From: an uncultured Lachnospiraceae bacterium | GTDB taxonomy: Bacteria > Bacillota > Clostridia > TANB77 > CAG-508 | Direction: 5' to 3' | Length of the DNA: 64,000 nucleotides | NCBI GenBank assembly: GCA_964470175.1 | Contig: CAYYBL010000001.1 | Location: forward strand, 4,982-68,981 | In this document: positions 10,545-62,390 of the stretch, in pieces | How the letters are laid out: the number at the start of each line of letters is the position of its first letter | Position numbering within the stretch: the stretch's first letter is position 1 | Program-made: the position numbers and the translations under genes | Notes under the pieces: model-generated | Told to the model about the DNA's origin: nothing | The model's input: the letters and a program-made list of their open reading frames with translations, nothing else | Databases searched by the model: none

Positions 10545-10617
10545 AGGTCTCCCCCATATTTTTCGTGACTTCATAGTAATATCCGAATTACATATGTTTC
10601 TTAATTTCTATAGGAAG

Positions 10618-12061: not shown

Positions 12062-12084
12062 TTTTTCTCCAATCTTATAGTTAT

Positions 12085-12114
12085 AGTATAGCAGAACAAA
12101 AGGGGACATGTAAA
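12085..12114 (-). promoter_or_regulatory. Candidate sigma-A promoter of the reductase-thioredoxin operon
   Basis: Minus strand reads TTTACA (12114-12109), an 18-nt spacer, then TATACT (12090-12085), about 25 nt upstream of the ATG at 12061. Confidence 0.5.
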
Positions 12115-12180
12115 GTAAATTTGTTTGCAATGCTGGCCGAAGGCCTTATATTATAGGAAGTACTTTGTGCTTCCTATAAC

Positions 12181-12228: not shown

Positions 12229-15200
12229 TTATTTAGTTAATACTTTTTTCTTGATAATCACTACTCCAGCACCAACTATAACAAGTCCTGCAGCTATAAC
12301 TACTAGAGCTTGAGAAATTATTTTGCCTTCCTTATCAGTCAAGCCATTTGGTGGTGAAAATGTGATAAGTTCTGTACTACTTGTATCTCTTTCAGCAACA
12401 GATTGTTCAAATTCTCCATATTTTGGATTTGTGTTACCTTGTGTTATCGTAATATCTCTTCTTCCTACAGTATTTTCCATTTTTACAACCTCTGCTATAT
12501 TATCAAATGATAAATTATTTGCATCTTTACTTGAAGCAACTACCTTTGTTATAGTAATATCAAGTACAGTATAGTTTGCTGTCGTATCTCCAACTCCTTC
12601 TGCTGGCTCAGACATATTATATGTAGTAATTGTACCTTGTTCTAATGTATCACCAGTCATTGGCACTAATTGTTGTTCAAATAGAGCATTAGATAATTGA
12701 TCATAATTATCAATACCATTTTCATTTCTTACAACACTAAGTTCATCCACACTTAGAACAACATTATTTCCTGAATCAGAAATATACACTCTATCATCTT
12801 TATCAAGAAGTTTATTTGTAGCAACAATATCTTTTGATAATAATTGTTCTCCATTTAATCCGTTTCCAGCAAGTTCAAGTACTGATGTGTTTTTCCATGA
12901 ATGATCAACCCTTCTATTATTAGTTGTATCAAATACTGCATCATTGTCAACATAATCAACAATTTGACGTACTCTTGTTGTAACTATTCTTAAAGTTTCC
13001 TTAGTTTTATCATTATATTGTCCATCATAATAATAGCTTCCAAGATATTTTCCTTCTTTTCCACGAATATTATCTTTTCGTGCATCTGCTATAACATCAT
13101 AAAGCGTTTCTCCACTCTTAACATCATCTATAGCAGCTATCCTTTCTGTCGTATAATCTACTTCACCTGCATTTAGAGCTGTAAATCTATAGTTAATCGT
13201 GATCGTTGTACCTTGCAATATTTCATCATCAATATCTACAAATCTAAAGTTTTGAATACCGTTATTATACTTACCTTCATCTTCTCTTATTCTACCATTG
13301 TAGCTTTGATCTTTATCTTCTACTTTTTCGATAGCTTTCATTAATTCATCACCAACAGATCTATCTTTAACCAAAGTAGTATTTGCTATCAAATATTCTT
13401 CTGAATTTGGTAATTTAATTAAAACTTTAGCATCAGAATCTTTACTATCGCCTATTGTATATTCTGTACCAAACTCTGCATCAAATATTGTCTTACCATC
13501 ATTTGTCGTAATCTCGATATCTTTTATTTCTTTATCAAGAATAATATTATTCTTAGGTCTTTCTATTAAACCTGTATTTATGTATTTTACTTCTTCTTTC
13601 CTTTCAGACTCATCTCCATTATATACTGGACAGATACCAACCTTTCTTGTATATGTTGACATTGCATATCCATCATATAATTCACTATGATATCCATTTA
13701 CATAGTTTGCTTCATTGAACATTTCAGAAAGCTCATTTGTAATTGTAGTAGATTTTGCCATCCCTTCTAGTCTTTGTACCTCATCATCTATGGCATATGA
13801 TTTCTTGCTATTCTCTGCTGATTCACCCGGAATATTTACTACCACATTTTCTTTTTTGTCATTATATATATATCCATCCGTATCCTTGTTCATGAAAATT
13901 GTTGCTTTGTAATCTTGTCCATTATATACAGCTGGTGTTTCATTATTTGCATCTTTATCATAGTTTGCTGTAAGTACTTCTGTACTTATTTGATTTCCGC
14001 CGTCTCTTGACTTTGCAGCGTTGAACATTTCACCTTTTTTGTTTAATGCAGTAGGTGCACCTGTATTTTGATCAGTATCAGCAAGAGTTGATTTATCTAT
14101 ACCATACTCTGATTTAACAAAGTAATCTCCGACAGGAATTTTCTTAAAGTTATATTGTCCAACTTTAACAACAGCTGAATCATATGATTCTATAACTTTT
14201 CCATCTTTGTCTTTGTTTACTCTTGACGATTCTGTTGTACTATCAAATCCAACTACATCCTCTACTGTCATTCCACCAAAGCTATTTAGTCCAACATTTG
14301 TAGGCCACAAGAAATCATAATCATTTGTTCCATCACTAAATGTTTCGACAAGTTCCATTGTTAGTCCACCTATTAGTGCTTCGTCATTTTCATCATATAG
14401 ACCATTTCCAACTGATTTTCCTTCTTCTTTGCTATCTTCCCATGCTAGACCAGAAACCACTTTATTTTGATTTTCATCAATCTTTAACTCTAGTACTGGT
14501 GCTGCATAAGTATCGTCCTCATATAATGATCTAAAGTTGAAATCATGTATATTTAGATTTGAAGGAGCTGAATTTCCATCAATCTTACCTGCAGTGCCTG
14601 AATATTCTTTATTATTACTATTAAATGATCTACTATTGTAGTATGTTGAATAACTTGCAATTTCAACTATATTTGATTTTGTACCAGTTTTTATTGCATT
14701 TATTACTGACTCAACTGAACTCTTTTCTGTCTTATATGTTACGTATATATTTATAAAGTCTCCACTTGATAACTTAGCAACATCATCTCCACTTGTACTT
14801 GGATTTGGTGAATCTGGTAGGTTCACTCTATACTTATCATAATACTTACCATCTGATGACAATATATCTTTTTGTACAACATTTGCATTATTCCAAACAA
14901 GATCATCTTGTTTTACGTTACTAATACCTTTTGTTATATATGGTTTTTCAATAGAAATACTTCTATTTTCTTCTTTTCCATTAACCGTTTTTACATCTTG
15001 TGTGAAGCTTCTCTCAACAACCTCCAATGTACTATCACTATAATCATCAATACCATTTATTCTCACATCATATTCTGCTGAATTATTTACGATTTGAATC
15101 TTATATTTTAGATAAACTTGCATTTCAGAATTTTCAATATTTTCTCCCAAAATTTCTTTTATCTTATCATAATCACTACTCATCGAATATATTTCAGATC

Positions 15201-18200
15201 TATAATAATAATCTGATGAATAAAGTCCAATTGGAGCTAAAGTTCTTTCAACTTTAGTTTTATCAATCAAATCTGCCAATTTATTAAATTGGAAAAATTG
15301 AGCATTTTGTTTTGTAACAACTGTAGCAGAATCTAGTACTTTTACTACAGATACATCTACATCTGGCCTATTAATCAATCCTAAATTAATATGTTTACTA
15401 TAACCCAAATATTTATATGTTACTTTTACTCCATCAACTGTCATTTCTCTTGATGGACTATCAGCCCTCAAGTGAACTTGGTTTGATAAAGGATATGCCG
15501 CATGAGCTGACTCCATTCCTATATATGTAGTTGCAGTTACCTTATATTGATCATAAGTATAGCCATTATCATCTGTTTTTATAATAGATTTCAATGAATT
15601 ACTTGAATTATCATTCCTATTAGATGAATCCATATTTCTTGCTTCATATGTCAAATCATATCCACTAGCATTTCCAATTGTAATACCAGATTCATTTAAC
15701 ACTTCTTTTCCTTCAATAGTTTCAAATCTTTCATTTACTTCTTTTCTATTTTTATCAATTGCAACAGAATCATTTGCATATTTAGCAACCATATCTGGGT
15801 ATTCATTTATACTTGAATTGTTTAAATCTGATATGTACATATCTGATTTTTTCTGATATGGATTAGATACATCTCCAACTTTTGCACTTGCCAAATAAGT
15901 TGTAGGCTCATATTTTTGTCCATTATACAAAAAGTCTACTTTATATTTTTCGTAAGCAAGTTCATAAAGAGTAATACCTTCTGCTTTCCAACTACCATCT
16001 TTATCTGTATAAATTGGTTGTGTAATTTCTTCACCCATTTCATCTCTTAAATCAGCTGGGCTACCATCTGCTGAATTTTTGACATAAACTTCAACTTTTT
16101 CTACACCTTCTTCTCCACTATCTAATTTACCATTCTTTCCAGTACCATTTTTATCCCATGGTGTTTCATCTAACCAAACTGTTCCTGAAAGATTTACTGT
16201 AAGAATTAGTTTTTTGTATTTTGGAAGCTCATTTATAACCGTAATTTCAAGCGGATCTCCGAGTTTACTATCAACTAATGTCTGTCCATTATTTGAAATA
16301 CTTGTATTCTTCCATCCAATGTTTGCATCTTTCTTAGAAAGGTCTTCATATACTTCTACTTGTGGTGCTTCATTACCATACCATGTAATTTCATCTGATT
16401 CAAATACACCACAATAATCATCACCATCTAATGTAACCTTAAATGTAAGAGCATCTTTTTCATCTTTAGTGCTATTATATTCGTTGTCATAAAGTTTACC
16501 CTTATATTTAAATTTTGTACCGTATATTTTGTAAGTCACTTCAAATGCTAAATCACTAGGATCTCCAATTAATTTTCTCTCTGCAACAATTTGTTTTCTG
16601 ATCTTAAACTTACCTTTATGTTCTTCGCTTTTATTTATAGCTACTACTGTGATAGCTTTTGCAATTGGATCACTTTCTTTTGAAGCATCTTCTACTACTC
16701 CAGTTGCATTATCTGATATTTCAACTAATTGATATCCCTCTGGAATATTAATCTCTTCAACTTTATATGTTGGAGCATTTTCCCCACTTTTCCATTCAAT
16801 TTTTTTAGTCCAATCCTCATTAACTTTTACGATTGGATTATATACTTCGCTATGACCATCTGCATATGTAATAGTTACTTTAAAAGTAAATTCTTCATCA
16901 CCATCTATTTCACTGCCATTTTCTGCTAATTTTGATACTTTTAAATATCCAAATTTTGGAACTGAATCATTTGTTGCTGTCACTGTAGTAGTAGTGTTCA
17001 TAGTTAAACTTCCACCTGCATTTGTGATACTTCTCTGTTTTGCAATTACAGTTCCATCTTTTTTATCTTTAACAACAACATCACCATTATCATCTGTAGT
17101 AAGTGATGTACCATCAAGATTTACCTCTTCTACTTTATATGTAGGCTCTGTCATACCTTTTTTCCATGTAATATCTGATAAATAATACTCAAAGTTGTTT
17201 CCTTCTACTAGCCAAACATCATCAATTACCATATCTTCATTTACATATGACTCGCCATTATATTCAAATGTACCATTTATCGTTACTTTAAATCTGAATT
17301 TTTGATTCTTTAATGAATCTGAAGTAAGCTCTTTTACAATTTTCAAATTTCCCTTATCTGGTACTGGCTCATCTTTTATTTTATTATGACAATTACCAAC
17401 CTCGACAACTTTATCAACTTCCAATGTTCCTGTATACACATCTGAATCACTTCCATCAAACTTGACAAAATATGTTCCTTCAGGTACATCAACTTCTTTT
17501 ACTGTAAATACTTTATCATCGGTAATCGTAATATCTTTAATTGTCTTTTCCCAAGTATATGTATTTCCGATTCTATTTGTTTTATCAAGCGTAACAGTAT
17601 TCGTTCCCCCATTATATGTAACATCAAATGTAAATACATAACCATCTGCACGTTCTTTCAACTTTTCTTTTAGTTCATCTGAAAGAGTTTCATCTATATC
17701 AAGTGTTTTAATTATTTTAATACTTCCATTATCTGTACCCTTATTAACACATATTACTTTGGCAACAGGTTCATCCTTCAAAACATTTGCAGCATTTTCC
17801 ATTTTATGTTCCTTGCTCTCATCTGTTTCTGTTTCAGATAAATCTTGCTCTATAACTTCATATAGTGGAGCTGTCTTTAATGGATCCCATTCAAATTTCT
17901 TTGATTTCCATGAACCATTACTTGTTTTACTTGCTTGTATTGATACAGTGGCATTTTCACCTCCTTCAATACTTCCATTATTATCTAAATAATATGTTCC
18001 TGGTTCTTTCACTTCACCATCGTAACCAAATTCACTTGTTGCAGTTATTTTAACTGTAAACTTGAATGTCTTAGTTTCATCAATTTCATATGAAGGATCG
18101 ACTTTCTTAACAATCTCTAATGATGAATTTGGTATATCTATCTTATTAAAGCAATTATCAACTTCAACTACTGTATCTGCTTCTAATATTCCTTTATATT

Positions 18201-21200
18201 CATCTGGATTACTTCCATCAAACTTAACAAAATGCGTTCCAGCAGGTACGTCAATCTCTTTTACAGTAAAGTCTTTGTTTGACTCATTTATTTTAATGTG
18301 TTCAATTGTCTTTTCCCATGTATATGTATTTCCAACTCTATTTGCTTTATCAATTTCAACAGTATGTGTCTGTCCATTATATTTAACTTCAAATTTAAAC
18401 TTTAATTCATCAACACGTTTGTCTAAATATTTTTTCTGGAATTTAGAAAGTGTTGTTTCATCAATATCAAGAGATTTCCTTATTTTAATGTCACCATATC
18501 GTACTGTTGGTCCATTAGTACATATTACTCTAACAGCATCTCCTTGTATATCAACCAACGAGCCACTACCATTTTCAATTTCATACTCTTTGCCTTCATC
18601 AGTATCTGTATCAGGTAAATCTAACTCTGTTACTTCATAATCTGGAGATTTTACTTTTACACTCCATCTAAATAAACCAGACTTCCATACACCTATTTCT
18701 TTCTTGCTTGCCTCAATAGCTACATAAGTGTTATTATTTGCATCAGCTTTTTTAACTAAGCCTTTTACACTATCTAAATAGTATTCTCCTGCATCATATG
18801 GAGTGCCATTGTATTCAAATTTCTCACTTGCTGTTATTTTAACTTTAAAATGGAATGTATATATCTTTTCATCATCAACTTCATCAGCTTCATATGACTC
18901 AGCTACCTTCTTTGTAATTTCCAAATATCCTCTATGTGGAGCACCTATTTCATTTTCAAAGAAAATGTTTGTTGATTTTTTTAATGTTTCTCCTTCATCA
19001 TTTTCCTTTACAATTCCTTCAAGGATTGGTGTATCTACTTCATCTTCGCCTTCAATCCAAGCTCTTTTGAAGAAAACACCTTCACTTACTATCTTATTTA
19101 CTATGAATCCACCATCATCCATAAGCTCTTCTACTTTAAATTCAGGTGCAACTTCACCTTTTGAAATATCCCACTTAAAAACTATACCTTGTTCTTTAGA
19201 GTCCCACTGCCATGTCCATGTATCACCTTCTTTTGTTGGATAAACTTTAATTTCTTCATCGAAATATTTAACATCAGTTGGTTTTTCTATTTCATTACCA
19301 CTTGCATCTATTGCCTTTACTCTTTGTGTAACTGTTACATGGAAATTAAATGCTATTTTTTCAATGTCACTTTCGTAATCATCAGCACCTTGAAGAGTTT
19401 TTATTAAGTTTATTTTACCATATTTGTAAGTTCCATTTATTGTGTTATCAATAGTTATATCAAATGTGTTTGTGGTACTTGGCTTTAATCTACCACTTGA
19501 TCCTTCTGATGTATATGTTGGAATATTTAGACTATATCCATCAGGTAAAACTACTTTTGAAGTATCCTCACTTGCTTTATATTCTGGAGCTTTGTCAAAC
19601 TCGCACCACTCAATTTCTTTATCTAATACACATACATTTGAGCCAGGTAGATATCTTCCTTTTCCAGGATTTTCTGGATCTTCTTCAAGTTTTGGTGTTA
19701 TAACTATTCCTTTTTCATATTTTGCCTTATCCTCTTCTTTTACTGGATTACCATCTTCTCCAAGCTCAACATATCCATCTCTTGTAAGTCTGATATAGTG
19801 ATCTCCATATTTTAGATTTTCTCCATATGAAAATCTTCCTTTAATGTCAACATAGAAGTAATAATCTCTATTTCGCAATATTTCCTTTGATTCGTCTTTA
19901 TATACGCCATTTTCTATATCAAAATTATCAACAGAACCTAAAATCTTTTCCAACTTTATTTTAGTTGTTTCTGTATCAATTTTATTTATACATGTATTTG
20001 TTATTTCATTTAATACATTATCATTATTTCTTAAGCTACCAGAAACTTCTGTTTTTCCTGATTCACCATTAAAGCTAACAAAACTTGTTCCTTCTGGTAC
20101 CTTAATTTCCTTTATTTTATATGAATGATCTCTCTTATCAAGTTTATACCATGTATATCTATCAGACACCCACGTAATTTGATATTTAGTTCCATTCTTT
20201 TTGCCATCTCCACCATGAAGTACAACATCTTCCTCTTTATTATCAACCGTTACTTTAAATGTAAAGTCTAAGTCTTTAAGCTTACTTATAACAAAGTCTC
20301 TTGTAGTTTCATCTGCAAATTTAGATAAATCAATTTCCTTTATTAATCTAAGTTTCGCACCTTCTGATTCATCATACTCATTTTCAAAACTTGCACTTGA
20401 AATATTTGTCAAGTTTTTCTCATCAGGCTCTGGTTTAAAATCATTTCCTGTATCTGTTGTAGTTGTACCTATAAGTTCTCCAGATATGATATATCTACCA
20501 TCAGCTGTAAGTTTTGCATCAGAACTAAATCTTGTTTCTCCAGTTTCATCTTTTAATTCTTCTAATTCAAATTTTGGTGCATTTTTTGTATACCATATAA
20601 TTGGTATTTCTTTTCCATTTTCATCAACCATAACATAATGATATTTACCATCTGCTTTTATTGTTATTGGTTTATTCTCTGGATTTGTATATGGCGTATT
20701 TTCTGTATAAGGAACACCATTTATATAAAAATCTCCTGTAATCTTTACATTAAATTTAAATTCTTTATTTTTTATTTGTTCACTTAATTCACTGCGCGCA
20801 CCCTCATCTGCTTCGGGTTCTTTCATTGTTTTTTGAATTCTAAGATATCCATATTTCTTTTCAAGCTTTTGGTTTGTAATGCGGAAGGTGATTCCCTTAT
20901 TTGCCTGAAATTCACCTCTAATAACGAAATCGTCTCCCAAAGGTACTTCTACTTCATTACCATTAGCATCTAAAATATATGCCTTAATTAAACGATATTT
21001 GTCTGCTGATACAGTTTCAGCATCGAATACTTCAGTAATTTCATATGTAGGATTTTTAATTTTACTATCATCTGCTACGGCCTCATATGCCCAAGCAAAA
21101 AACTTTGATCTTGAAGTACGAGCTTTAGGATCTTTTCCAACTGTTACAACAACTGGTGGAAAATTCATATTTTCAAAGTTATTTCTATACACACTTTTAC

Positions 21201-22863
21201 TTGGATCATTTTCATCTATAGAATTTCTATATGCATCATCCTGCACTATACCTTTTACATTAAACTTAAATCTAGCTTCATCTAAATCATCGTTATCTAT
21301 CGTATTTCCATATTCATCAACAACTTTCTTTGTAATCTGAACTTGTGCAATTTTTATATTGAATTGTCTACGTAATGAATATATTTCCTTCCATCTAAAT
21401 GCATCTCCTGCTAAAGCTAATCTTTGTGAGTCAAGTGTACCACCATCAATAGTATCTACCGTAGCATGGGTACCTTGTGTATTATTGTCAGGGTTTGTTT
21501 CGTTATAATGATACACAACTGTTCTTGCTTTCTTCCCGTAATGTCCTTCAAGTTTTTGATATGTACCATCTGCATTAGTATATTCAAAATTTACATTAAA
21601 CTGTAAAATAGATCCTGATCTAGAAACTTTATCTGTTCCCATAATTAAATAGAAAGCTTGATTGCCCTTAGGTGCAATTCTATCTGTCTTAACAAATTCA
21701 TCATGTTCACTGTCATAAAGAACTATTTTGAAATCTTTTTTACGATCTTCTTTGTTACTAAACTCTAATACTAGTGTATTATCATTGTCTAAAACTAATT
21801 CTATACTAGTTATATTTGAAAACTCTGACTTATAATAATCTACTGCAAAAGGACCAACCAAGTATTCCTTCGTATCAGCATTAAATGATACACTTGGTTT
21901 TTTATAATTCTCTCTTCCATTATCTGCAGTATTATAAATATTTCCCTTAGTTACCCACTTTGGTTTAGTCAAATTAAATCCAGCCGTCTTGTATGGTATA
22001 TTTGGATCTCTTCTATATTCATTCCATTCCTCTGTTTTTTCACCTCCAGATAATCTGTTAGCGCTTCCATCTTTTGTAGATTCTGTAGCATGAATTATAT
22101 AATCTTCAAATCTAACTGCTTCTTCATAAAGATCATTTGATCCCATATCACTACCAGTATGTCCAGCAGGTGTCATCCACCATGCCTGTTGTTCTTCAGA
22201 ATAATATCCTTCTGTTGGTGTTTCACCATCTCTAAGTGCTGAAAGAACCCAAGCTTCCTGTGGTATACATCTTAATGAATCTTTTACTGTATATACTGAT
22301 TGAGTTTCTTCATATGAAAGTGTCGTACCATTTGGATAAGTAAAATCATCATCACCATCATAGTCCCATGCATCATAATCTTGAGCAGCAGGCGAATTAG
22401 GATCAAGTACATCATCATCATTTGTCTCATCAGCTCCTTCTGGAACATTTGAATAATCAACTGTAAATGATCCACCACTAGAAATATGTTGTCCTCTTTG
22501 ACAACAAAGTATTTCCGCATAATCTCTTAATTCAACAAAACCAATATTAAGACTATCTCCTTTGGCAGCCTTAAGACCGGGTTTATAGTGCTCAACATTT
22601 TTAGTTCCAACTAATACTGCATCCGATAATTTTCCAGCAGTTTCGGTTTTGGACGAAAGTGCTGAACCATGTTTATCAAATGCTGCTGTTTCTTCATCTT
22701 CATCTGAACCCCACTCACCAAAATCAATACTGTCCTCATAATCGTCCTCTGCTTTTGATATATTTGATAAGTTGATGTTTAATACTACCAATGATAAAAA
22801 GAACAAACTCATCATCAATAATACTTTTATTACTAAATTCTTCATTTTCATATCATTTCTCAT
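12229..22863 (-). CDS. Giant surface protein 1 (3,544 aa): signal peptide, thioester-domain-like head, about 12+ CnaB/SpaA-like stalk modules, SdrD-B-like and DUF11-like C-terminal region, TFSPPNG motif + TM + KKKVLTK tail
   Basis: ORF track 12229..22890. I prefer ATG 22863-22861 (MRNDMKMKNLVIKVLLMMSLFFLSLVV...SKA/EDD), which sits 1 nt after the upstream stop with GGGGGTG 6 nt upstream. Modules repeatedly start G-x-L-x-I-x-K, contain F-x-F-x-V and P-x-Y-x-V-x-E, and end [C/A]-x-N. The SdrD-B-like segment is LSGTVWLDETPWDKNGTGKNGKLDSGEEGVEKVEVYV. Confidence 0.9.
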   Translation of the reverse strand: MRNDMKMKNLVIKVLLMMSLFFLSLVVLNINLSNISKAEDDYEDSIDFGEWGSDEDEETAAFDKHGSALSSKTETAGKLSDAVLVGTKNVEHYKPGLKAAKGDSLNIGFVELRDYAEILCCQRGQHISSGGSFTVDYSNVPEGADETNDDDVLDPNSPAAQDYDAWDYDGDDDFTYPNGTTLSYEETQSVYTVKDSLRCIPQEAWVLSALRDGETPTEGYYSEEQQAWWMTPAGHTGSDMGSNDLYEEAVRFEDYIIHATESTKDGSANRLSGGEKTEEWNEYRRDPNIPYKTAGFNLTKPKWVTKGNIYNTADNGRENYKKPSVSFNADTKEYLVGPFAVDYYKSEFSNITSIELVLDNDNTLVLEFSNKEDRKKDFKIVLYDSEHDEFVKTDRIAPKGNQAFYLIMGTDKVSRSGSILQFNVNFEYTNADGTYQKLEGHYGKKARTVVYHYNETNPDNNTQGTHATVDTIDGGTLDSQRLALAGDAFRWKEIYSLRRQFNIKIAQVQITKKVVDEYGNTIDNDDLDEARFKFNVKGIVQDDAYRNSIDENDPSKSVYRNNFENMNFPPVVVTVGKDPKARTSRSKFFAWAYEAVADDSKIKNPTYEITEVFDAETVSADKYRLIKAYILDANGNEVEVPLGDDFVIRGEFQANKGITFRITNQKLEKKYGYLRIQKTMKEPEADEGARSELSEQIKNKEFKFNVKITGDFYINGVPYTENTPYTNPENKPITIKADGKYHYVMVDENGKEIPIIWYTKNAPKFELEELKDETGETRFSSDAKLTADGRYIISGELIGTTTTDTGNDFKPEPDEKNLTNISSASFENEYDESEGAKLRLIKEIDLSKFADETTRDFVISKLKDLDFTFKVTVDNKEEDVVLHGGDGKKNGTKYQITWVSDRYTWYKLDKRDHSYKIKEIKVPEGTSFVSFNGESGKTEVSGSLRNNDNVLNEITNTCINKIDTETTKIKLEKILGSVDNFDIENGVYKDESKEILRNRDYYFYVDIKGRFSYGENLKYGDHYIRLTRDGYVELGEDGNPVKEEDKAKYEKGIVITPKLEEDPENPGKGRYLPGSNVCVLDKEIEWCEFDKAPEYKASEDTSKVVLPDGYSLNIPTYTSEGSSGRLKPSTTNTFDITIDNTINGTYKYGKINLIKTLQGADDYESDIEKIAFNFHVTVTQRVKAIDASGNEIEKPTDVKYFDEEIKVYPTKEGDTWTWQWDSKEQGIVFKWDISKGEVAPEFKVEELMDDGGFIVNKIVSEGVFFKRAWIEGEDEVDTPILEGIVKENDEGETLKKSTNIFFENEIGAPHRGYLEITKKVAESYEADEVDDEKIYTFHFKVKITASEKFEYNGTPYDAGEYYLDSVKGLVKKADANNNTYVAIEASKKEIGVWKSGLFRWSVKVKSPDYEVTELDLPDTDTDEGKEYEIENGSGSLVDIQGDAVRVICTNGPTVRYGDIKIRKSLDIDETTLSKFQKKYLDKRVDELKFKFEVKYNGQTHTVEIDKANRVGNTYTWEKTIEHIKINESNKDFTVKEIDVPAGTHFVKFDGSNPDEYKGILEADTVVEVDNCFNKIDIPNSSLEIVKKVDPSYEIDETKTFKFTVKITATSEFGYDGEVKEPGTYYLDNNGSIEGGENATVSIQASKTSNGSWKSKKFEWDPLKTAPLYEVIEQDLSETETDESKEHKMENAANVLKDEPVAKVICVNKGTDNGSIKIIKTLDIDETLSDELKEKLKERADGYVFTFDVTYNGGTNTVTLDKTNRIGNTYTWEKTIKDITITDDKVFTVKEVDVPEGTYFVKFDGSDSDVYTGTLEVDKVVEVGNCHNKIKDEPVPDKGNLKIVKELTSDSLKNQKFRFKVTINGTFEYNGESYVNEDMVIDDVWLVEGNNFEYYLSDITWKKGMTEPTYKVEEVNLDGTSLTTDDNGDVVVKDKKDGTVIAKQRSITNAGGSLTMNTTTTVTATNDSVPKFGYLKVSKLAENGSEIDGDEEFTFKVTITYADGHSEVYNPIVKVNEDWTKKIEWKSGENAPTYKVEEINIPEGYQLVEISDNATGVVEDASKESDPIAKAITVVAINKSEEHKGKFKIRKQIVAERKLIGDPSDLAFEVTYKIYGTKFKYKGKLYDNEYNSTKDEKDALTFKVTLDGDDYCGVFESDEITWYGNEAPQVEVYEDLSKKDANIGWKNTSISNNGQTLVDSKLGDPLEITVINELPKYKKLILTVNLSGTVWLDETPWDKNGTGKNGKLDSGEEGVEKVEVYVKNSADGSPADLRDEMGEEITQPIYTDKDGSWKAEGITLYELAYEKYKVDFLYNGQKYEPTTYLASAKVGDVSNPYQKKSDMYISDLNNSSINEYPDMVAKYANDSVAIDKNRKEVNERFETIEGKEVLNESGITIGNASGYDLTYEARNMDSSNRNDNSSNSLKSIIKTDDNGYTYDQYKVTATTYIGMESAHAAYPLSNQVHLRADSPSREMTVDGVKVTYKYLGYSKHINLGLINRPDVDVSVVKVLDSATVVTKQNAQFFQFNKLADLIDKTKVERTLAPIGLYSSDYYYRSEIYSMSSDYDKIKEILGENIENSEMQVYLKYKIQIVNNSAEYDVRINGIDDYSDSTLEVVERSFTQDVKTVNGKEENRSISIEKPYITKGISNVKQDDLVWNNANVVQKDILSSDGKYYDKYRVNLPDSPNPSTSGDDVAKLSSGDFINIYVTYKTEKSSVESVINAIKTGTKSNIVEIASYSTYYNSRSFNSNNKEYSGTAGKIDGNSAPSNLNIHDFNFRSLYEDDTYAAPVLELKIDENQNKVVSGLAWEDSKEEGKSVGNGLYDENDEALIGGLTMELVETFSDGTNDYDFLWPTNVGLNSFGGMTVEDVVGFDSTTESSRVNKDKDGKVIESYDSAVVKVGQYNFKKIPVGDYFVKSEYGIDKSTLADTDQNTGAPTALNKKGEMFNAAKSRDGGNQISTEVLTANYDKDANNETPAVYNGQDYKATIFMNKDTDGYIYNDKKENVVVNIPGESAENSKKSYAIDDEVQRLEGMAKSTTITNELSEMFNEANYVNGYHSELYDGYAMSTYTRKVGICPVYNGDESERKEEVKYINTGLIERPKNNIILDKEIKDIEITTNDGKTIFDAEFGTEYTIGDSKDSDAKVLIKLPNSEEYLIANTTLVKDRSVGDELMKAIEKVEDKDQSYNGRIREDEGKYNNGIQNFRFVDIDDEILQGTTITINYRFTALNAGEVDYTTERIAAIDDVKSGETLYDVIADARKDNIRGKEGKYLGSYYYDGQYNDKTKETLRIVTTRVRQIVDYVDNDAVFDTTNNRRVDHSWKNTSVLELAGNGLNGEQLLSKDIVATNKLLDKDDRVYISDSGNNVVLSVDELSVVRNENGIDNYDQLSNALFEQQLVPMTGDTLEQGTITTYNMSEPAEGVGDTTANYTVLDITITKVVASSKDANNLSFDNIAEVVKMENTVGRRDITITQGNTNPKYGEFEQSVAERDTSSTELITFSPPNGLTDKEGKIISQALVVIAAGLVIVGAGVVIIKKKVLTK
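17375..18935 (-). repeat. Tandem duplication of a two-domain unit (A-B-A'-B', about 260 aa per A-B unit) inside giant 1
   Basis: RGYLEITKKVAESYEADEVDDEKIYTFHFKVKITASEKFEYNG... parallels SSLEIVKKVDPSYEIDETKTFKFTVKITATSEFGYDG.... YGDIKIRKSLDIDETTLSKF...RVGNTYTWEKTIEHIKI...FTVKEIDVPAGTHFVKFDGS parallels NGSIKIIKTLDIDETLSDEL...RIGNTYTWEKTIKDITI...FTVKEVDVPEGTYFVKFDGS. The similarity is also visible in the DNA, by eye. Confidence 0.65.
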
Positions 22864-22864
22864 A

Positions 22865-25800
22865 TTAAACACCCCCTTCCTCTTCTTCAACTTTTCTTTT
22901 ATTCATCACAATCTTTCTGTTTATCACAATTACTGCGAGAACCACCAGCATTGATGTAGTAATAATCATCGATGTATAAATAAGTGTCTCACCTGTCCTT
23001 ATAAGAATAATTATATCTGAACTACTTAAGTCATTTTCTCTTTGTGCTTTATTTGCTGGAGTAGAATTATAATCATCTACACCATATATATTATAGTCTT
23101 CATAAATCTCTGCTTGATTGTTTACAAGTCCTGTATTTTCACCTGTCATATTCTTTTCTAGCACTAACTTAATTACAGTTGATTCTCCCGGTGCTAGGCT
23201 TAGATTTTCTCTAGATGCGTTAAATATAGTATCATTTGAGCCTGTATACCATCCGTTATTTAATGCTAGACTTGAATTAAATTCCATATCTTGTGGTTTA
23301 TAATCTACTATTTTCTTAACAAATCCAGGAATTTCTCCTTTATTTGTAATCTTTATTTCATATTCAACAAGTACTTTTGCACCATCAATATTTTTAGCAG
23401 GTATATCTTCTTTTACAAGTTTTTCACCATTATAATTATTTGTAGAAGTACCCTTTGATGATTGTACTGTAACCTTTGAAATGCTCATGTCTAATTCTAA
23501 GTCAAATTTATCTGCAAGTACAAGTCCTAAATCTATATTTGATACGCTTGAATTGTCTATAACTATTGCATCAGATACAGCTGCTGTTCTTGATGTTCCT
23601 TCTTGTGTAACTTTTTCTGCAATTGCATCAGAATTTGTTGAATCTTGTACTCCATCCTTTTTGTATGTAGTAACACCATATTTTATAGTATCATAATCAT
23701 ATATTACAAAGTATTTTCCGTTTTCTACACCATTTAATATATACATTCCACTACTGTCTGTTGTTACCTTTTTCAATATTTTTCCAGTTTCGCTTTCAAC
23801 AAGACTCACTCTTACATCTCCTACCATTGGAGACTCATTGGTATCTCTCATACCATCTTTATCTGAATCAAGCCATACATATCCTGATATTTTATATGTT
23901 TTATTCACTTTATCAGTATCACTTGATGAAGAAGGTCTTGCAGAATTTGAACTAGATTCCTCTACCTTTTCTTCTCCTTCGCCTTCAGCTAAAACATTTT
24001 TTAATGTGAATGTTAATGAATTTGAAGTAATTTCATCTACATTTTCAGCAGAAACCGTAGCAAAGTTTGTAACAGTTTTTTCTTCTGAAGTATCTCTAAT
24101 GCTAGCATATGTATCAACTATAACCTTAAGTTCCTCTCCTGCTTTTATATTTTCACATACATAGACCTTATTACTTTTTGAATCATTTTCTTTATCCACT
24201 GAACCAACTGTATATTTTACGCCCTTTACTTGAAGTTCATCTGGGAATATATCTTTAAATGCTACTTTTGGTACTGTAACTTTGCTATCATTCTTAATAG
24301 TAAATATAAATCTTATGTTTTCCCCTTCATTAATTGTTGAAGAAACATCTGTATCCGTTGTTTGAGATATTGTAAGTACTGAGTCGCTTATATTTACCTT
24401 ACTTACTTCAGACTCATATACATCAATACCATCTGCCCAAGCTTTTGCACTCGTACCAACCGTATCATATGTCATATTGTTTGAAATATGATCAACCTTA
24501 AATTCATATTCACAACAAACATGCTCATTTGGTTTTAATTCATTTAAATTCCAAGTAATTGTTCTTGTAGCTTCATCATAGCTTCCTTCACTTATTTCTG
24601 TATAATTCTCACCAACATACATACATAGATGTGATGAAACATACTTAAACTCTATAGGAAGCTCCTTAGTAACATTTAAATTTTTAAGAGTTTTATCTGT
24701 AAGATTTTTAACTTGTACTGTATGACCTACTTGATCACCTATTCTATACGTTTTAAAAACCTGACCTCTATCATATTCATTTATCTTTAATTCTGCATTA
24801 TTTACCTTTGTTTTTTCACTTGAAGCATTTATTTCTTTTCCTAAATCTTTTGCGATAGCCTTTGCTGTAGTCTCTACATAACTATCACCAGATGATTTTT
24901 TCATAACTGAAAGATTTAGTTCTGCAGATAATTCTTTTCCAACTTCCAATTCTTCAGACCTTATAACGATCTTGTTATTTTCTAAACTTAAAGAAGCATC
25001 TTCTTTATTTAATGTTGATGTCTCTTCACTAAATAATGTACTTCTTGGTACAGGTATCTCTATATATACCTGTTCTGCATTCTGTTTTCCTACATTTTTA
25101 AGCACAACACTTACTGGAAGATTTTCATACTCTTTTACTTCCTCTTTATTGTTCTTAAGAGAAAGAGTAAGCTCTGGTCCATTTCCTGTAGTAAGCATTG
25201 CTAGGTCTGCGAAGCTTATTTCTGCTTTCTTTAACTCATCTTCATTTGATGTATAATATGTAACAAATTCACCTGCTAAATATTCATGATGAGCTAAATC
25301 TTCAGGAATCTCAAATGTATACTTAAATTTAAGAGTTTCTCCCACAGTAAGCTTAAAGTCATCATTTTCTGGAACAATCATGTATGACTTCATTTCTGAT
25401 AAATCTGAAGGGTTTTCTTCCCAACCATTTTCTCCATTTTGTAAATCTCTTGTTGCTAACGCATTTTTTGAATAATAAACTTTAAAACTTGATGAACTTT
25501 CTTCTGCTAAAACTACTCCTGATAACATTTTTGTATCTATAGTGGTTCTTTCTACGACTTTCTCTCCTGTAATTATATCTACCAAATCTTTTTGAGGTAT
25601 TCTTCCTAGAATACTTACATTTGATATGTCGCTATTTTCATTATTCATTACATATAATATCATTTCTGCATTTTTGCTGCCTGAATGAACCTCTATAAAA
25701 TCAGTCATCTTTCCTTGATTTACAGAAGCTATATATCCATTTTCTTTATATCCCGTTATAGCATTCACGCTTACTACACCAGAAGGAGCAGAATATCTAA

Positions 25801-27943
25801 TTTCTACATTTTCTGTTTCTTCATAATTTGTAGCTTGTTCATTAGAAACTTTACATGAAATCTCAGCTTTCTTCACTGGTGTAAGTCTATTTACAGTAAT
25901 ATTTGCTACTATAACAATGTTTGTACCATTGGTAATAACAGAACTATTTAATCCTTTTTGCATACCAGATGTACTAACTCTTATAGTTCTTGTATCAACA
26001 ACTTCTACATTTTCAAGTGTAAGTCCTTCATCATAAGCAATACTTGAGTTTAGTATTTCTATACTTTCAACTTCACTTGGTAAAACAATATCAAATACTG
26101 AATTTCCATATATATCTGAAAACTCAGAACTATTATTTAATTCTATTTTAAACTCTACATCTTCTGTCTTTGATACTGTAGAGAAAGAATCTTTATTTAC
26201 AACAAGATTTACTTTTGTTTTTGTATCTACCATACTAATAGTATTTTCTACGTTACTTACTATTTGCTCAGCATCTACATATGTATATTTTGCAACAAGT
26301 TCTGATGCAATTTTAATACTTTGAACTTCTTGCATTTTTGATCTATCAATAGAAGAGTCCGATATAGCTCTTTCTACATTTATTACTAAATTTCCTTGTG
26401 TTATAGGTTTTGATACTTCATATGTAAGTACTTTTCTGTTTGAATCAGGCATAACAACTTCGATATTATTATTTTCATCCTCATTCATTTTTAGAGATGC
26501 AATTACTATTCCTGCATCATATATATTTATATAGCCTTCTTTTCCTAATATATTTTCAAAATTTTCTTTTGAAACAGAAACCTTCTTTGTATATACATCA
26601 GACATGCTTACTTGCTCTCCTGATTTTAATACATACATGGCTTCTTTATCATTTATTTTTAGAGAATCTATAATGTTGTTATTTGAGATATTTAAAATTT
26701 CTTTTGAATTTAAAATTGTTTCAACTTTTTCGCTATTTAAGTAATTTGAATAAATACCATTTTTTGAAACTTCATTTTTATCATTTTCGATATTTAATGA
26801 TACTAAACTACCTACTTCGCTCTCAAAAGAATTTTTATATGAATTAGATACAGTTACCTGATTTGCATCAGAATCCTTTTCTCCACAATATGTAGAAACT
26901 ACCATTGCTATATCCGATACTACTTCTTTAGCATCTATATTTTCTAATCCTTCATAAACATATGTTACAAGATATTCATCCACTCCAGGAATGTTATAGT
27001 ATCTTTCTTCTTTAACGATTTTTTCTTGATCAACCAAATATTCATCATCATATTCATTAAATTCAACCATTGATTTCTCATTTTTTACAGAGATATCAAC
27101 GATACCATCTCTATATGAATAATTAGATTCATTGAATTTGATAGTGTCAGCATTCCCACCGTTTGTATTTTCCAATTTATTTGCATCAACTATAACCTTA
27201 CTTGGTTTTTGTCCACTTATAACTGGTGCATCAATCCTAATAGCTGTTTCTCTAACAGGTAAAGTCTTTTCATCAGTTGTACCATCTACTTTTACAAGAC
27301 TTTGTAGGATAATACCTCCACCATAATTTATGAATTTTTGTATTGAAGATTCAAGACTAACCTTTCTTTGATTCGTCCAAGAAACACTTAATGTATCTTC
27401 ATATACAACCTCTTTCTCATTACCATCTTTATTTACATATACACCTGTAAGCCTTACCTTAGCATCACTTGCAATATTTTTATCATTTACATACTTTTCA
27501 TACTTGTAAGTGAATGGCACTGAGATAATTGTCTTTACATCTGAATCAATTTGTTTTAAAGTAATCTCATTTTTTGAAACACCTTGAATCAAAGAATTTT
27601 GTCCTATGTTTTCACCTAAAACAAAGTTTAATCCCTTTCCTTCCTCACTCTCTAGGATACTAATTTGAGCGTTTTTTAAATACCCGCTTTCCTTCACCTC
27701 AAGTGACAAATCAATGGCTAAATCTTTATTATTTACATCACTAATAACCGAAGCAGTCTTAGTACCTGATCCGGTTTCAAAATATGCACTAAATTCTACA
27801 TTCTCATTTGTTTTTGAACTTGAGAAAACTTCTGTAATGATTTCTGAAGCAAAAGTTTCTCCAACAAATAAGAAGTTGGCAGAAGTTAATGTAAATATTA
27901 GAAGAATAGCGAGTAACTTTGTCCTGATATTGCTTGATTTCAT
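22865..27943 (-). CDS. Partner protein 1 (1,692 aa): signal peptide, long beta-rich N-terminal region, DUF11-like repeats, SdrD-B-like domain, DUF11-like domain with D-x-x-S-x-P-x-N...(E/N)D motif, LIRTGE + TM + basic tail
   Basis: ATG 27943-27941 follows AGGAGGAG (27951-27958). N-terminus is MKSSNIRTKLLAILLIFTLTSANFLFVGETFAS. DUF11-like signatures include GDQVGHTVQVKNLTDKTLKNLNVTKELPIEFKYVSS and EGENIRFIFTIKNDSKVTVPKVAFKDIFPDELQV. SdrD-B-like segment: ISGYVWLDSDKDGMRDTNESPMVGDVRVSLVESETGK...SSGMYILNGVENGKYFVIYDYD. C-terminus: ...DIIILIRTGETLIYTSMIITTSMLVVLAVIVINRKIVMNKRKVEEEEGGV. Confidence 0.9.
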   Translation of the reverse strand: MKSSNIRTKLLAILLIFTLTSANFLFVGETFASEIITEVFSSSKTNENVEFSAYFETGSGTKTASVISDVNNKDLAIDLSLEVKESGYLKNAQISILESEEGKGLNFVLGENIGQNSLIQGVSKNEITLKQIDSDVKTIISVPFTYKYEKYVNDKNIASDAKVRLTGVYVNKDGNEKEVVYEDTLSVSWTNQRKVSLESSIQKFINYGGGIILQSLVKVDGTTDEKTLPVRETAIRIDAPVISGQKPSKVIVDANKLENTNGGNADTIKFNESNYSYRDGIVDISVKNEKSMVEFNEYDDEYLVDQEKIVKEERYYNIPGVDEYLVTYVYEGLENIDAKEVVSDIAMVVSTYCGEKDSDANQVTVSNSYKNSFESEVGSLVSLNIENDKNEVSKNGIYSNYLNSEKVETILNSKEILNISNNNIIDSLKINDKEAMYVLKSGEQVSMSDVYTKKVSVSKENFENILGKEGYINIYDAGIVIASLKMNEDENNNIEVVMPDSNRKVLTYEVSKPITQGNLVINVERAISDSSIDRSKMQEVQSIKIASELVAKYTYVDAEQIVSNVENTISMVDTKTKVNLVVNKDSFSTVSKTEDVEFKIELNNSSEFSDIYGNSVFDIVLPSEVESIEILNSSIAYDEGLTLENVEVVDTRTIRVSTSGMQKGLNSSVITNGTNIVIVANITVNRLTPVKKAEISCKVSNEQATNYEETENVEIRYSAPSGVVSVNAITGYKENGYIASVNQGKMTDFIEVHSGSKNAEMILYVMNNENSDISNVSILGRIPQKDLVDIITGEKVVERTTIDTKMLSGVVLAEESSSSFKVYYSKNALATRDLQNGENGWEENPSDLSEMKSYMIVPENDDFKLTVGETLKFKYTFEIPEDLAHHEYLAGEFVTYYTSNEDELKKAEISFADLAMLTTGNGPELTLSLKNNKEEVKEYENLPVSVVLKNVGKQNAEQVYIEIPVPRSTLFSEETSTLNKEDASLSLENNKIVIRSEELEVGKELSAELNLSVMKKSSGDSYVETTAKAIAKDLGKEINASSEKTKVNNAELKINEYDRGQVFKTYRIGDQVGHTVQVKNLTDKTLKNLNVTKELPIEFKYVSSHLCMYVGENYTEISEGSYDEATRTITWNLNELKPNEHVCCEYEFKVDHISNNMTYDTVGTSAKAWADGIDVYESEVSKVNISDSVLTISQTTDTDVSSTINEGENIRFIFTIKNDSKVTVPKVAFKDIFPDELQVKGVKYTVGSVDKENDSKSNKVYVCENIKAGEELKVIVDTYASIRDTSEEKTVTNFATVSAENVDEITSNSLTFTLKNVLAEGEGEEKVEESSSNSARPSSSSDTDKVNKTYKISGYVWLDSDKDGMRDTNESPMVGDVRVSLVESETGKILKKVTTDSSGMYILNGVENGKYFVIYDYDTIKYGVTTYKKDGVQDSTNSDAIAEKVTQEGTSRTAAVSDAIVIDNSSVSNIDLGLVLADKFDLELDMSISKVTVQSSKGTSTNNYNGEKLVKEDIPAKNIDGAKVLVEYEIKITNKGEIPGFVKKIVDYKPQDMEFNSSLALNNGWYTGSNDTIFNASRENLSLAPGESTVIKLVLEKNMTGENTGLVNNQAEIYEDYNIYGVDDYNSTPANKAQRENDLSSSDIIILIRTGETLIYTSMIITTSMLVVLAVIVINRKIVMNKRKVEEEEGGV

Positions 27944-28429: not shown

Positions 28430-31400
28430 TTATTTTATAAACTTTGAATCTAATACTTTTTTCCTAATAAGTATGATTCCGCCAGCTATTATAACTATTG
28501 ATACTGAAGCTATAGCTAGTACTTGAGTAAGTAAAATATTTGACTTATCTATACCAGTAGGTGGTGTAAATGTAACTATTTCTGTGCTTGATGCTCCTCT
28601 TTTCTTTAATGATTCAAAGAATTCACCATATTTAGGTGTAATAACACCTGTGATATATGTCATATCTCTTCTTCCTACTGTATTTTCGTATTTAACAATC
28701 TCAGCTAATGCATCAAACGCTAAACTGTTTGATTCATCTGAAGATAATGTAGATATTTTTTTCGTTGTAATAATATCAATTGTACCTGATGTCTTGACTT
28801 TTTCATCAGTATTTGGATTCTTTCCAATGATGATATCTTCTGTACCTCCATTTAAGTCTTTATCCAAATACAACATGTTTTCATGGAAAATATTATTGCC
28901 ATACGCTCTAATAGGAACCAATCTAAATTCAAATGCTCCATTTGTAACTGCACCTTTATCATCTGACCATGGTCTATAATTATCATTTAGCTGATCTACT
29001 GAAAGAGCTAGGTTATTTTGAGTATCAGATGTATATTGTCTATTGTTTTTATCAATAATCGTTTTTCCATTTGCTACAGTCTTTCCAATCAACCTCTTTT
29101 CATAATTTCCATTACCATTAAGTTCTTCGATACTCGTATTTTTCCAATATCTATTGTAGTTGCTATTTTCTGATGTATCAAATACGGCATCTGTATCAAC
29201 GTAATCTAATACTTGTCTTACCCTTGTTGTAACAATTGCCTGACCAGCAATACTTCCAGTATAATAATAGTTTCCAATTACTGAGCCAAATTTTAAGTCC
29301 TTCTTTCCATCTACCCTACTTCCACTTATGCTATATATACTATTGTTATCATTTACAGTTTTTGCAGCATTTATTATTGTTGCATATTCTCCAATTGGAC
29401 TTTTTGAGCCAGAAATTTCACTAATTGCCTTTGTAGTATAATCTACCTCGCCCACATTTATCGCTGTAATTTTGTACCCAATAGCTATATATAAACCTTG
29501 TAATAAATCTTCATCGATGTTTATAAATTTAAAGTTTTGAATTCCTTTATTCTTTTCTTTTAGTTGTTCTAATTTATTTTCAGTTTTTCCTATTGCCTGC
29601 ATCAACTCTATTCCAGTTGACTTGTTTTTGTTTAATTCCACAATAACTACTAGATAATTATCAGAATCTAGTTTTGCGACAACAGGAATATCATCACTCG
29701 GTTTGCCTTTCACTTTTTTGTAATTTATATCGTATTCTGCATTAAACAAGACTTTATTATCATTTGTAATAAGTTTTATTGAACTTACTTCATCATCAAG
29801 AACGATCTTGTTTTCAGGTCTTTCTATTAAACCAATATTAACATTTTTTACATTTTGCTTGTTTGCTATAGTTCCCTTTTTCTTCTTTGATGTTGTGTAT
29901 AATCCATCTATCTCATCATCTTTATAGTTTAATATCTTAATTTTAGGTGTATCAGCATACATATCATACTTCTCATGAAGAACTCCATATGCTCCTGAGA
30001 CGTCATTTGCCTCAGACATATCTCCACCATTCTTATTTGTAATGGTTTCAGAGTTTGCCATTACCTCTGCTCTTCTATACTCGTTATCTCTTACATATGA
30101 TTTATTAGCATTTGATCCAGTTTCTGTATTACCTATAAACTCTTCTGTTAAACTTCCACCATACAATGTAGCCTTGAAGTCTTGGCCATTATATATAGTA
30201 GTCGTCTTACCGTATTTTATTTCATCGTAATTTGCAACATTTGAACCTGTTTTTAAATCATATTTTTTATATGGAGTATAAGTATATGTAACATATTTAC
30301 CAAGAGCTAAATCATAGGTTGTCTTTGTAGATGTATTATTTTCAAGTTTTTCCTTCGTATTATATGCTGCTGGTTCTCCAGAAATATCTCTCGTATTTTG
30401 TTGACTATTTTTGTCATTTCCATATCTTGCTCTAACTACATAATTTCCTGAAGGTATATTTTCAAATCGATATGTTCCTACTTCTTGTGTTTCAAGTGAA
30501 GAAACCACTCCTGCAACATTTCCATCATCACCAAGTTTATCTCCAACTTTTCTTTCTATCTTTGTCCTTGCTGTCTCTACAGTACTTCTAAATCCAGTAA
30601 GCTCTTCAAAGGTTTTTCCTCCAAGTGAAGCTAGATTTGTATTTGTATCCCACAAATAATCAAATTCTACACTTTCAGTTTTACTCTTCTTTAGCTGAAC
30701 TTTTTCTACAAGTTCTGTAGTAAGACCTCCTATTACTGCTTCATTATCATTTTTATCATTGTTATACACACCATCTCCAACAGAATCGTCATCTATCTTC
30801 TTGTCTTCAAATGCCAATCCAGATATTGTTTTTTCTGTAGATTCGTTATCTAGATACATATCAAGCACAGCTTTATATGTATCATTTTCGAATCTTGTAT
30901 AGGTATCAAATGATCCAATATTTACATTTGAAGGTGCTGAATTTTTGTCTATCTTTCCGTTTATTTTCCTATTTTTATATGTAGAATAACTATTGATTTC
31001 CACTATATTGTCTTGTTTTCCAAGTCTTATTGCATCTCTTACGCCATCACTATTACCTTTATCAACCTTGTATGTAATAGAATATGTAACATTTTTTCCA
31101 ATATCTATTTCACCTGGATTCTTTATTACATATGTTCTCTTATTATATGTCGTTCCATTTGATGAAATAACGTCTACAGGAGCTGATACAGACGCTGTAT
31201 TTTTATTTAATGAGTTATAAGTTTCAGATGCTTTGTCAAATATCTTAGTCTCTTCTGTTTTTTTATTTTCTATTTTGGTTGTTCCATCACTATCATCAAG
31301 TATTTTGTATATATCTTTTGTAACAGGTATAAGTGAATTACTTGAATAATCATCAATTGCATTTATTTTAACTTTTGAATCAGTTGAATTATTAGTAAGA

Positions 31401-46402: not shown

Positions 46403-46403
46403 A

Positions 46404-62387: not shown

Positions 62388-62390
62388 TTT

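Follow-up and report, generated by a model that had tools for sequence, protein, structure and literature searches.

The window analysed here is the whole of a 64,000-nucleotide stretch from an uncultured Lachnospiraceae bacterium (Clostridia; TANB77; CAG-508), corresponding to C1:4982-68981 of a 1.71 Mb source genome (GCA_964470175.1; 150 contigs, referred to below by C numbers; 30% G+C; 96.9% complete). Its large genes are on the minus strand throughout and include three consecutive gene pairs, in each of which the gene of a protein of about 1700-1800 aa, called here the partner, is followed by that of a giant of 3400-6000 aa. The subject of this study is the C-terminal tail of the partners, where a pentapeptide ending in Thr-Gly is followed by a membrane helix and a basic tail, as in the sorting signals of sortase substrates, with Ile or Val at the position usually held by Pro. 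The paired genes are:

22865..27943, minus strand: partner 1 gene, 1692 aa, with a signal-peptide-like N-terminus, DUF11 and SdrD_B domains and the C-terminal tail
12229..22863, minus strand: giant 2, the next gene after partner 1, about 3544 aa when counted from the ATG at 22863
46404..51785, minus strand: partner 2 gene, 1793 aa
28430..46465, minus strand: giant 3, the next gene after partner 2, about 6000 aa
62391..63998, minus strand: partner 3 gene, C-terminal 535 aa in the window, 5' end open and extending past the window end
52182..62387, minus strand: giant 4, the next gene after partner 3, 3401 aa

The partners match DUF11 (PF01345; 63.3, 42.1 and 37.9 bits vs. a Pfam gathering cut-off of 24.6) and SdrD_B (PF17210; 50.2, 39.1 and 32.6 bits vs. 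29.7), and TIGR01451 likewise over its cut-off, while giants 2 and 4 gave no Pfam match at E<=0.001. The partner N-termini MKSSNIRTKLLAILLIFTLTSANFLFVGETFA and MAKSILKKTMVMFIIFSMTFGNFALVGKVYA have the look of signal peptides, as judged by eye. As for partner 3, it is apparently split in two: an N-terminal open reading frame (ORF) of 963 aa, signal peptide included, and a C-terminal one of 928 aa, which overlap by about 47 nt (C1:70112-70158) as the result of either a frameshift or an assembly error.

In the three pairs, the ATG of the giant lies 1-3 nt past the stop codon of the partner, and a Shine-Dalgarno-like sequence (GGGGGTG, GAGAGGTG or GGGGAGGTG) is found inside the final codons of the partner, which encode GGV, RGV or GEV (window 22861-22880, 46400-46420 and 62385-62405). 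Since the last codons of the partner double as the Shine-Dalgarno-like sequence of the giant, the end ...KRKGGV is near-invariant in close partner homologues. The upstream TTG and GTG starts given by the ORF finder for giants 2 and 3 are probably not real starts.

A conserved proline-free motif at the partner C-terminus

The translated partners end in ...DIIILIRTGETLIYTSMIITTSMLVVLAVIVINRKIVMNKRKVEEEEGGV (partner 1), ...DVIILVKTGDAFMY...NRKRGV (partner 2) and ...DVIITISTGAKAVRTILV...KRKRY...GEV (partner 3). These ends agree with those quoted in an earlier reading of the window made from its letters (the sequence-only reading), whose ranges fit to within a few codons. The elements of the tails are encoded as follows:

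22991..23005, minus strand: codons of the partner 1 pentapeptide L-I-R-T-G, whose T157 and G158 are invariant in alignments A1 and A3
22868..22990, minus strand: partner 1 post-motif region, with E, the hydrophobic helix, the basic tail NRKIVMNKRK and EEEEGGV, the last codons holding GGGGGTG for the ATG at 22863
46515..46529, minus strand: codons of the partner 2 pentapeptide L-V-K-T-G
62520..62534, minus strand: codons of the partner 3 pentapeptide T-I-S-T-G

All three partners have the hydrophobic helix and basic tail of a sorting signal after the pentapeptide, and I, V and I instead of its Pro at position 2. The same type of tail is found in a fourth paralogue of the source genome (C11:13854-17795, 1313 aa), whose C-terminus consists of QISTG, a helix and KKYVL and whose gene is not followed by a giant; its orthologues in six other family genomes carry SVSTG, SVQTG, STKTG and the like, a helix, and then IKK[YF][VI]L at the extreme end.

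The motif is conserved at every distance covered. Among close homologues (the best 120 of 655 at E<=1e-5, giving 112 distinct tails together with the three window partners), [IVA][KRS]TG[EDA] is present in 112/112, with I in 57, V in 43 and A in 10 of the 112 at position 2; five sequences had initially been out of register on an upstream TG, two of which scored N at that position. A search with a 6-row alignment gave 63 related loci in metagenome-assembled genomes of gut Clostridia (Candidatus Scatovivens, Clostridium sp. CAG:780, UBA7001 and others), and x[IVA]xTG followed by the helix and basic tail was found in all 63 partner homologues. A large downstream ORF starts within -32 to +18 nt in 59 of these loci.

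Concerning more distant proteins, the last 199 residues were used as the query, with no word filter, and the best 150 of 1989 representatives (50% clustering) at E<=1e-3 were taken. In 146 of them E[DN]D is followed by 11 aa (118), 13 aa (27) or 7 aa (1) and then TG. Position 2 is V in 89, I in 41, L in 8, T in 5, P in 2 and A in 1; position 3 is K in 97 and varied in the remainder, and position 6 is mostly E. Since the search pattern itself demanded TG, the informative figure is the miss rate of 4/150, and these four comprise two multi-repeat proteins ending otherwise, one unrelated ending and one APKTG in another context, with no SG, TA or NG variant among them. The two Pro cases, GPKTG and SPRTG, are in the same register, which suggests that reversion to Pro is rare but possible. 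Retention of TG spans sequences down to about 40% identity. In each of three independent alignments (A1, A2 and A3) the T and G columns show no variation, and they rank among the most conserved of the last 350 residues. The partner module was present in 52/52 family genomes sampled; in a separate search it was found in 9/9 family genomes and the source genome, and in 1/391 other Clostridia, as a partial match without the tail.

The motif is part of the tail rather than of the domain before it. The tail follows a terminal Ig-like domain of the DSTPxN...EDD type, which also occurs as internal copies in multi-repeat proteins. None of these internal copies has TG, which is restricted to the terminal copy before the helix; in the internal copies, the last strand is followed by 2-4 residues and then by the next domain (FDLALKK), as in ...ATITVSRQDFDLALRK, so that the inter-domain linker takes the place of positions 2-5 of the pentapeptide. 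The sequence-only reading had envisaged, as one of two options, decayed signals now acting as plain membrane anchors, and had held the xTG segment to be a chance match in a membrane-proximal linker should orthologues not conserve it. The segment is retained in orthologues, position 2 keeps I or V and almost never reverts to P, and the conservation of T and G, together with their lack in internal domain copies, leaves decay unsupported.

For the last 199 residues, AlphaFold2 (15-row alignment, mean pLDDT 79.7) predicted a strand at 146-156, a break at T157 and a helix from G158 to 195, the L-I-R of partner 1 sitting in the last strand. With this model, Foldseek returned generic Ig-like beta-sandwiches, headed by YcnI and by the integrin alpha calf-2 domain with a transmembrane fragment, both of them membrane-proximal sandwiches joined to a helix.

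Giant tails and neighbouring genes

The giants have tails of a related build, with about 10-12 polar residues between the pentapeptide and the helix:

12343..12357, minus strand: giant 2 pentapeptide S-P-P-N-G, then 12 polar residues, the helix and KKKVLTK
28553..28567, minus strand: giant 3 pentapeptide T-P-P-T-G, then the helix and basic tail
52320..52334, minus strand: giant 4 pentapeptide M-P-P-T-G, then the helix and basic tail

The 82 giant homologues found represent 79 distinct tails, which read ...SATEL[IV]TF, then position 1 (T 56, S 14, A 5, V 1, M 1...) and PP[T/N/S/Q]G. The pattern [TSAVM]PP[TNSQ]G is present in 79/79, and the giants thus have the Pro of class B sorting signals, which the partners lack. 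Mean pairwise identity is 0.89 over the five positions of the motif, 0.29 over the 12-residue spacer, 0.49 over the helix and 0.82 over the terminal KKVLTK. More divergent giant loci carry MPSTG, TPTTG, TSTTG, IAPTG, IPPTG, SPPFG and LTPFG.

An alignment of the partner and giant tail profiles with hhalign (E 3.4e-4, probability 38%, 64 columns) placed TG on TG, the partner being one residue shorter. Although this profile alignment is weak, a common ancestry of the two tails is probable. A complex predicted between the giant tail and the partner tail scored 0.00 in a run made without controls and gave no verdict either way. The sequence-only reading had deduced that giant and partner would differ in their anchoring, wall versus membrane; the TG-on-TG alignment, weak as it is, and the unusually conserved helix and tail in both proteins suggest one shared pathway instead. 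A single anchoring mode for giant and partner is most likely, whether their tails are cleaved or are kept as membrane anchors.

At the extreme C-terminus of the giants, IKKKVL(K) (e.g. window 12232-12252), conservation (0.82) exceeds that of the ectodomain (about 0.47), and this end may be part of a recognition signal. Further very large surface proteins, broken by contig ends, are encoded at C27:12521-17377 and at the ends of contigs C27 and C66; one of them ends in LSPPTG, a helix and a basic tail, and another, of 3995 aa, in ...SKILQGGV, as if followed by a coupled gene.

The N-termini of giants 2 and 3 include ...ILCCQRGQ... or ...ILCRQKGG..., and that of giant 2 additionally ...EEQQAWW.... 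We take these motifs to recall thioester domains, an assignment that Pfam did not confirm: nothing relevant was obtained for the giants' N-termini at E<=10, and a thioester domain was rejected. A fourth giant (window 3-10574), of a different family, has 17 DUF285 repeats and DUF6273, runs off the window and reaches at least 5185 aa on the contig. It is set apart from the gene pairs by two small genes (10848-11165 and 11192-12130), which by eye we take to resemble thioredoxin (WCGPC) and thioredoxin reductase (CATC, FAD/NAD-type N-terminus), respectively.

Sortases and sortase-adjacent signals in the family

Nine sortase-domain (PF04203) matches were found in the 1.7 Mb source genome, and 3-14 sortases in each of 61/61 family genomes. 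With the module restricted to the family, and with sortases in all family genomes searched, there is no sortase-free carrier for comparison. Canonical LPKTG and LPNTG proteins occur in the source genome alongside the partners. Three of its sortases are of class B, two of them encoded in the vicinity of proteins with SSPSTG and ATPNTG ends, which fit the class B preference (S/P)PXTG. For class E, the model NF033747 gave at most 54 bits (cut-off 160) in the six source-genome sortases scanned.

Proline-free signals of a similar type are found directly beside a sortase gene in this same family. In the source genome, a 193-aa secreted protein (C37:10826-11407) ends in ...GKTLLYTGAN, a helix and KKRV, and its gene stops 2 nt before that of a 203-aa class D-like sortase (101 bits vs. 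a cut-off of 140; the pair spans C37:10826-12020). Seven further family genomes, found through the small protein, have LTYTG, LVNTG (twice), LAYTG, LVQTG (twice) and LAQTG at the corresponding place. Thirteen genomes found through the sortase, one of them shared with the preceding set, have LAYTG (8), LVQTG (3), LAQTG (1) and LVYTG (1). In four genomes of a sister family, an orthologous sortase of 37-38% identity is preceded by LPFTG (3) or LPYTG (1). Overall, the signal of the sortase-adjacent small protein is without Pro in 20 genomes (19 of the family and one of the sister family) and with Pro in four (sister family). No upstream ORF was found in two further loci, and five more distant matches were longer, fused sortases without such a neighbour. 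On this genomic-context evidence, A, V, L or T appears to have taken the place of Pro in a sortase-coupled signal of this lineage. The sortase coupled to the small protein is itself followed by a polytopic membrane protein of about 250-290 aa.

Among family genomes without class B sortase, G021 has four sortases. Its 208-aa sortase adjoins a small LPKTG protein and its 200-aa sortase a protein ending in ...LPVTGM, and its 228-aa and 260-aa sortases have no obvious substrate nearby. The 260-aa type has a match in 52/52 family genomes and, among 98 genomes from elsewhere in the order, matches at paralogue level in 6. Since any family-specific gene would show the same 52/52 profile, this sortase is only nominated as a candidate for the partner's enzyme. 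Its copy in the source genome (C11:8063-8834) is split into ORFs of 170 and 93 aa, with one stop inside the match, and represents either a pseudogene or an assembly error. Outside the family, partner matches in five genomes and 260-aa sortase matches in six do not overlap, which is uninformative; these partner matches, on short contigs or in one 72%-complete bin, may be binning errors.

Other processing enzymes were also considered. An exosortase or archaeosortase was rejected, PF09721 not being found in the source genome, and a rhomboid is present but matches 14/14 control genomes as well, hence is uninformative. Two side observations concern other sortase-related proteins. Those adjoining a 158-200-aa sortase in the source genome (C3:30127-31398) and in G021 (8478-9830) end exactly in ...LPVTGY or ...LPVTGM, with neither helix nor tail. 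At C12:17638-20490, a 414-aa protein with a sortase-like C-terminal domain has ...SIQTGAD where the catalytic TLxTC is expected and no Cys, and stands beside two paralogues of its N-terminal domain.

Readings of the partner tail

The reading we put first, with about an even chance of being right, is that the partner C-terminus is a functional, lineage-specific, proline-free variant of the tripartite sortase-type sorting signal. Beyond the strong selection on the motif, cleavage would be consistent with the presence of the same type of tail on partners, giants and the giant-less paralogue, with the occurrence of Pro in 2/146, with K at position 3 and E at position 6, and with the abundance of sortases. 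The L[AVLT]xTG proteins that adjoin a sortase gene lend indirect support to the other option of the sequence-only reading, a divergent transpeptidase that recognises these tails, which thus appears plausible.

What the sequences show is the motif, the strong selection on it, its place in the tail and the proline-free xTG signals beside sortase genes of the family; cleavage, the identity of the enzyme and the acceptor are inferred. The pentapeptide [S/T/G/L/A]-[I/V]-[K/R/S]-T-G would begin where the last beta-strand of the terminal Ig-like domain ends, with the membrane helix and basic tail directly after it. The partner would be secreted and held in the membrane by its helix and tail; one of the many sortases of the family, encoded away from the locus, would then cut between Thr and Gly, and the Thr carboxyl would be joined to the wall or to another protein. 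The giant would use the same pathway.

LPKTGE is a common form of the sorting signal. With canonical LPXTG signals the partners share secretion, a pentapeptide ending in T-G, the helix, the basic tail, and the frequent K at position 3 and E after G. They differ from them by I or V at position 2 (rarely A, L or T) and by a position 1 that is not conserved; they also have no low-complexity wall-spanning linker. Among the known variants are the signals cut by Clostridioides difficile SrtB: SPKTG, PPKTG, SPSTG and SPQTG peptides are reported as cleaved (PMC4155245, PMC5569036), the [S/T]PPTG of the giants fits (S/P)PXTG, and S-V-K-T-G of the partners differs from SPKTG at position 2 only. In class E sortases, the replacement of Pro by Ala is established (LAXTG; PMC5148588). 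Ala is also found in 10/112 close partner homologues and in the LA[YQ]TG of sortase-adjacent small proteins, but the usual partner residue is beta-branched I or V, position 1 is not L, and no sortase at class E level was present among the six scanned. A Cna protein of Gardnerella has V at position 2 of an adhesin tail, remarked on, but not tested, by its authors as a 'nontypical LVXTG' signal (PMC12095359); organism and protein family are unrelated. This remark was all that a literature search on LIKTG, LVKTG, SVKTG, LIXTG, LVXTG and IKTGE returned, and no description of the motif class was found in the library searched.

Several observations weigh against a cleaved signal. With the nine sortases of the source genome as blastp queries, no match was obtained within 10 kb on either side of the partner in 63 loci, and no sortase is encoded on the 90-kb contig that holds the window. 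Class B sortase (TIGR03064, E<=1e-10) was found in 36/52 family genomes vs. 52/52 for the partner, the 16 genomes without it being 95-100% complete, which rules it out as the required dedicated enzyme; the class D-like sortase that accompanies L[AV]xTG proteins, present in 14/52, is ruled out likewise. No curated sorting-signal model of NCBIfam reached its cut-off on the partner tails, the best being TIGR01167 with partner 3 only (12.3 vs. 15.9 bits), and the tails of partners 1 and 2 matched no family at E<=10. The NVQTG of C. difficile CbpA, which is the nearest tested proline-free motif and likewise has V at position 2, was not cleaved by SrtB in vitro, and CbpA is considered to be no true substrate (PMC4155245, PMC5569036). 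Finally, there is no linker before the partner motif, and the spacing from EDD to TG is fixed.

The comparison of the tails with a canonical LPXTG protein points the same way. As a control, the LPXTG C1 peptidase of the source genome (C17:945-3494) and its homologues were used. Among the matches listed, Pro was found at position 2 in 120/120 (115 [LIV]Px[TA][GA] and 5 FP[KN]AG), and a long low-complexity linker precedes the motif in all. Identity over the 28 residues after the motif was compared at matched body identity, where the body stands for the final ~300 residues of partners and giants but for the entire control protein:

Body identity 0.4-0.5: control 0.19, partners 0.29, giants (helix and tail) 0.52
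Body identity 0.5-0.6: control 0.24, partners 0.46, giants none quoted
Body identity 0.6-0.7: control 0.31, partners 0.62, giants none quoted

The helix and tail of the partner thus appear about twice as conserved as those of the control and nearly as conserved as the ectodomain (0.59 for the helix alone vs. 0.65-0.68), which is unexpected for a segment to be discarded, although the last ~8 codons of the partner are also constrained by the ribosome-binding site of the giant.

The main alternative, which we consider possible at rather less than an even chance, is a type I membrane anchor that derives from a sorting signal but is no longer cleaved. Thr-Gly would then be a strand-to-helix hinge or cap under the last Ig-like domain, and the conserved helix would have a sequence-dependent role within the membrane, such as packing against the helix of the giant or another membrane protein. 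The predicted strand, break and helix of the AlphaFold2 model suit such a hinge, as do the Foldseek matches, generic as they are, and only a family-wide sortase subfamily tracks the partner. However, a hinge should tolerate S, N or D for T and A, S or N for G, and none of these occurs in the 63 loci or in the 146 tails (the latter taken with a pattern requiring TG). Across the wider family TG is kept while the helix sequence is not, save for an aromatic residue a few positions past TG and a (G)xYxINKKVL-like end. Moreover, K and E at positions 3 and 6 resemble LPKTGE, the homologous tail of the giants keeps PPTG before a variable 12-residue spacer, with the look of a recognition site rather than a hinge, and proline-free xTG signals adjoin sortase genes in the same family.

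A third, improbable explanation is a sortase-mediated ligation between the two proteins, the Thr of giant or partner being joined to a Lys of the other in a pilus-like two-component fibre, with only one of them on the wall. Pilins usually have their motif directly after the last strand, and so has the partner. Giant and partner are adjacent and apparently translationally coupled, and a large downstream ORF accompanies the partner in nearly all related loci. A parallel to their x-P-P-T-G and x-V-x-T-G pair is provided by Streptococcus pyogenes, where the tip adhesin Cpa (VPPTG or VVPTG) and the shaft pilin (EVPTG or QVPTG) have V or P at position 2, are encoded in one operon and are cut between T and G by one class B sortase, Spy0129 (PMC3019223). 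The consensus given there is (E/Q/V)(V/P)PTG, and polymerisation in vitro is reported to have failed. In those signals, though, Pro always occupies position 3, whereas the partner motif has no Pro at all, and the pilus operon includes its sortase. The present locus has no pilin-type sortase, and neither a pilin motif nor an acceptor lysine was found. The 16 family genomes mentioned are without class B sortase, and a paralogue with the same tail has no adjacent giant. A chance match, or a decayed signal serving only hydrophobic anchoring, could account for the missing Pro and for the sorting-signal models not reached, but is scarcely credible with TG in 112/112, 63/63 and 146/150 tails at fixed spacing and in none of the internal domain copies.

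A more far-reaching version of the proline-free signal, which we regard as speculative and unlikely as it stands, is that this family of small-genome gut Clostridia evolved a system of its own, with a Phi-x-T-G motif, a helix with conserved features, an IKKxVL-type tail and a distant, family-specific sortase that attaches or ligates giants and partners. If so, it would be a two-component surface fibre assembled without a pilin sortase encoded at the locus, and the first sortase specificity to do entirely without Pro in the motif, its place being taken by a beta-branched residue.

As it is, annotation by the LPXTG pattern or by profile models misses these partner tails. The switch from P to A or V between sister families in the sortase-adjacent small proteins is a natural experiment on the evolution of sortase specificity. 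Were x-[I/V]-x-T-G a real signal, the rule requiring Pro (or Ala, in class E) at position 2 would need widening; were the tail a permanent anchor, a sorting signal would have become a membrane anchor with its scissile dipeptide retained. How the giant-partner pairs are held on the cell depends on which of the two applies and, in the case of a real signal, current tools would overlook the route by which a whole uncultured family of gut Clostridia displays the largest of its surface proteins.

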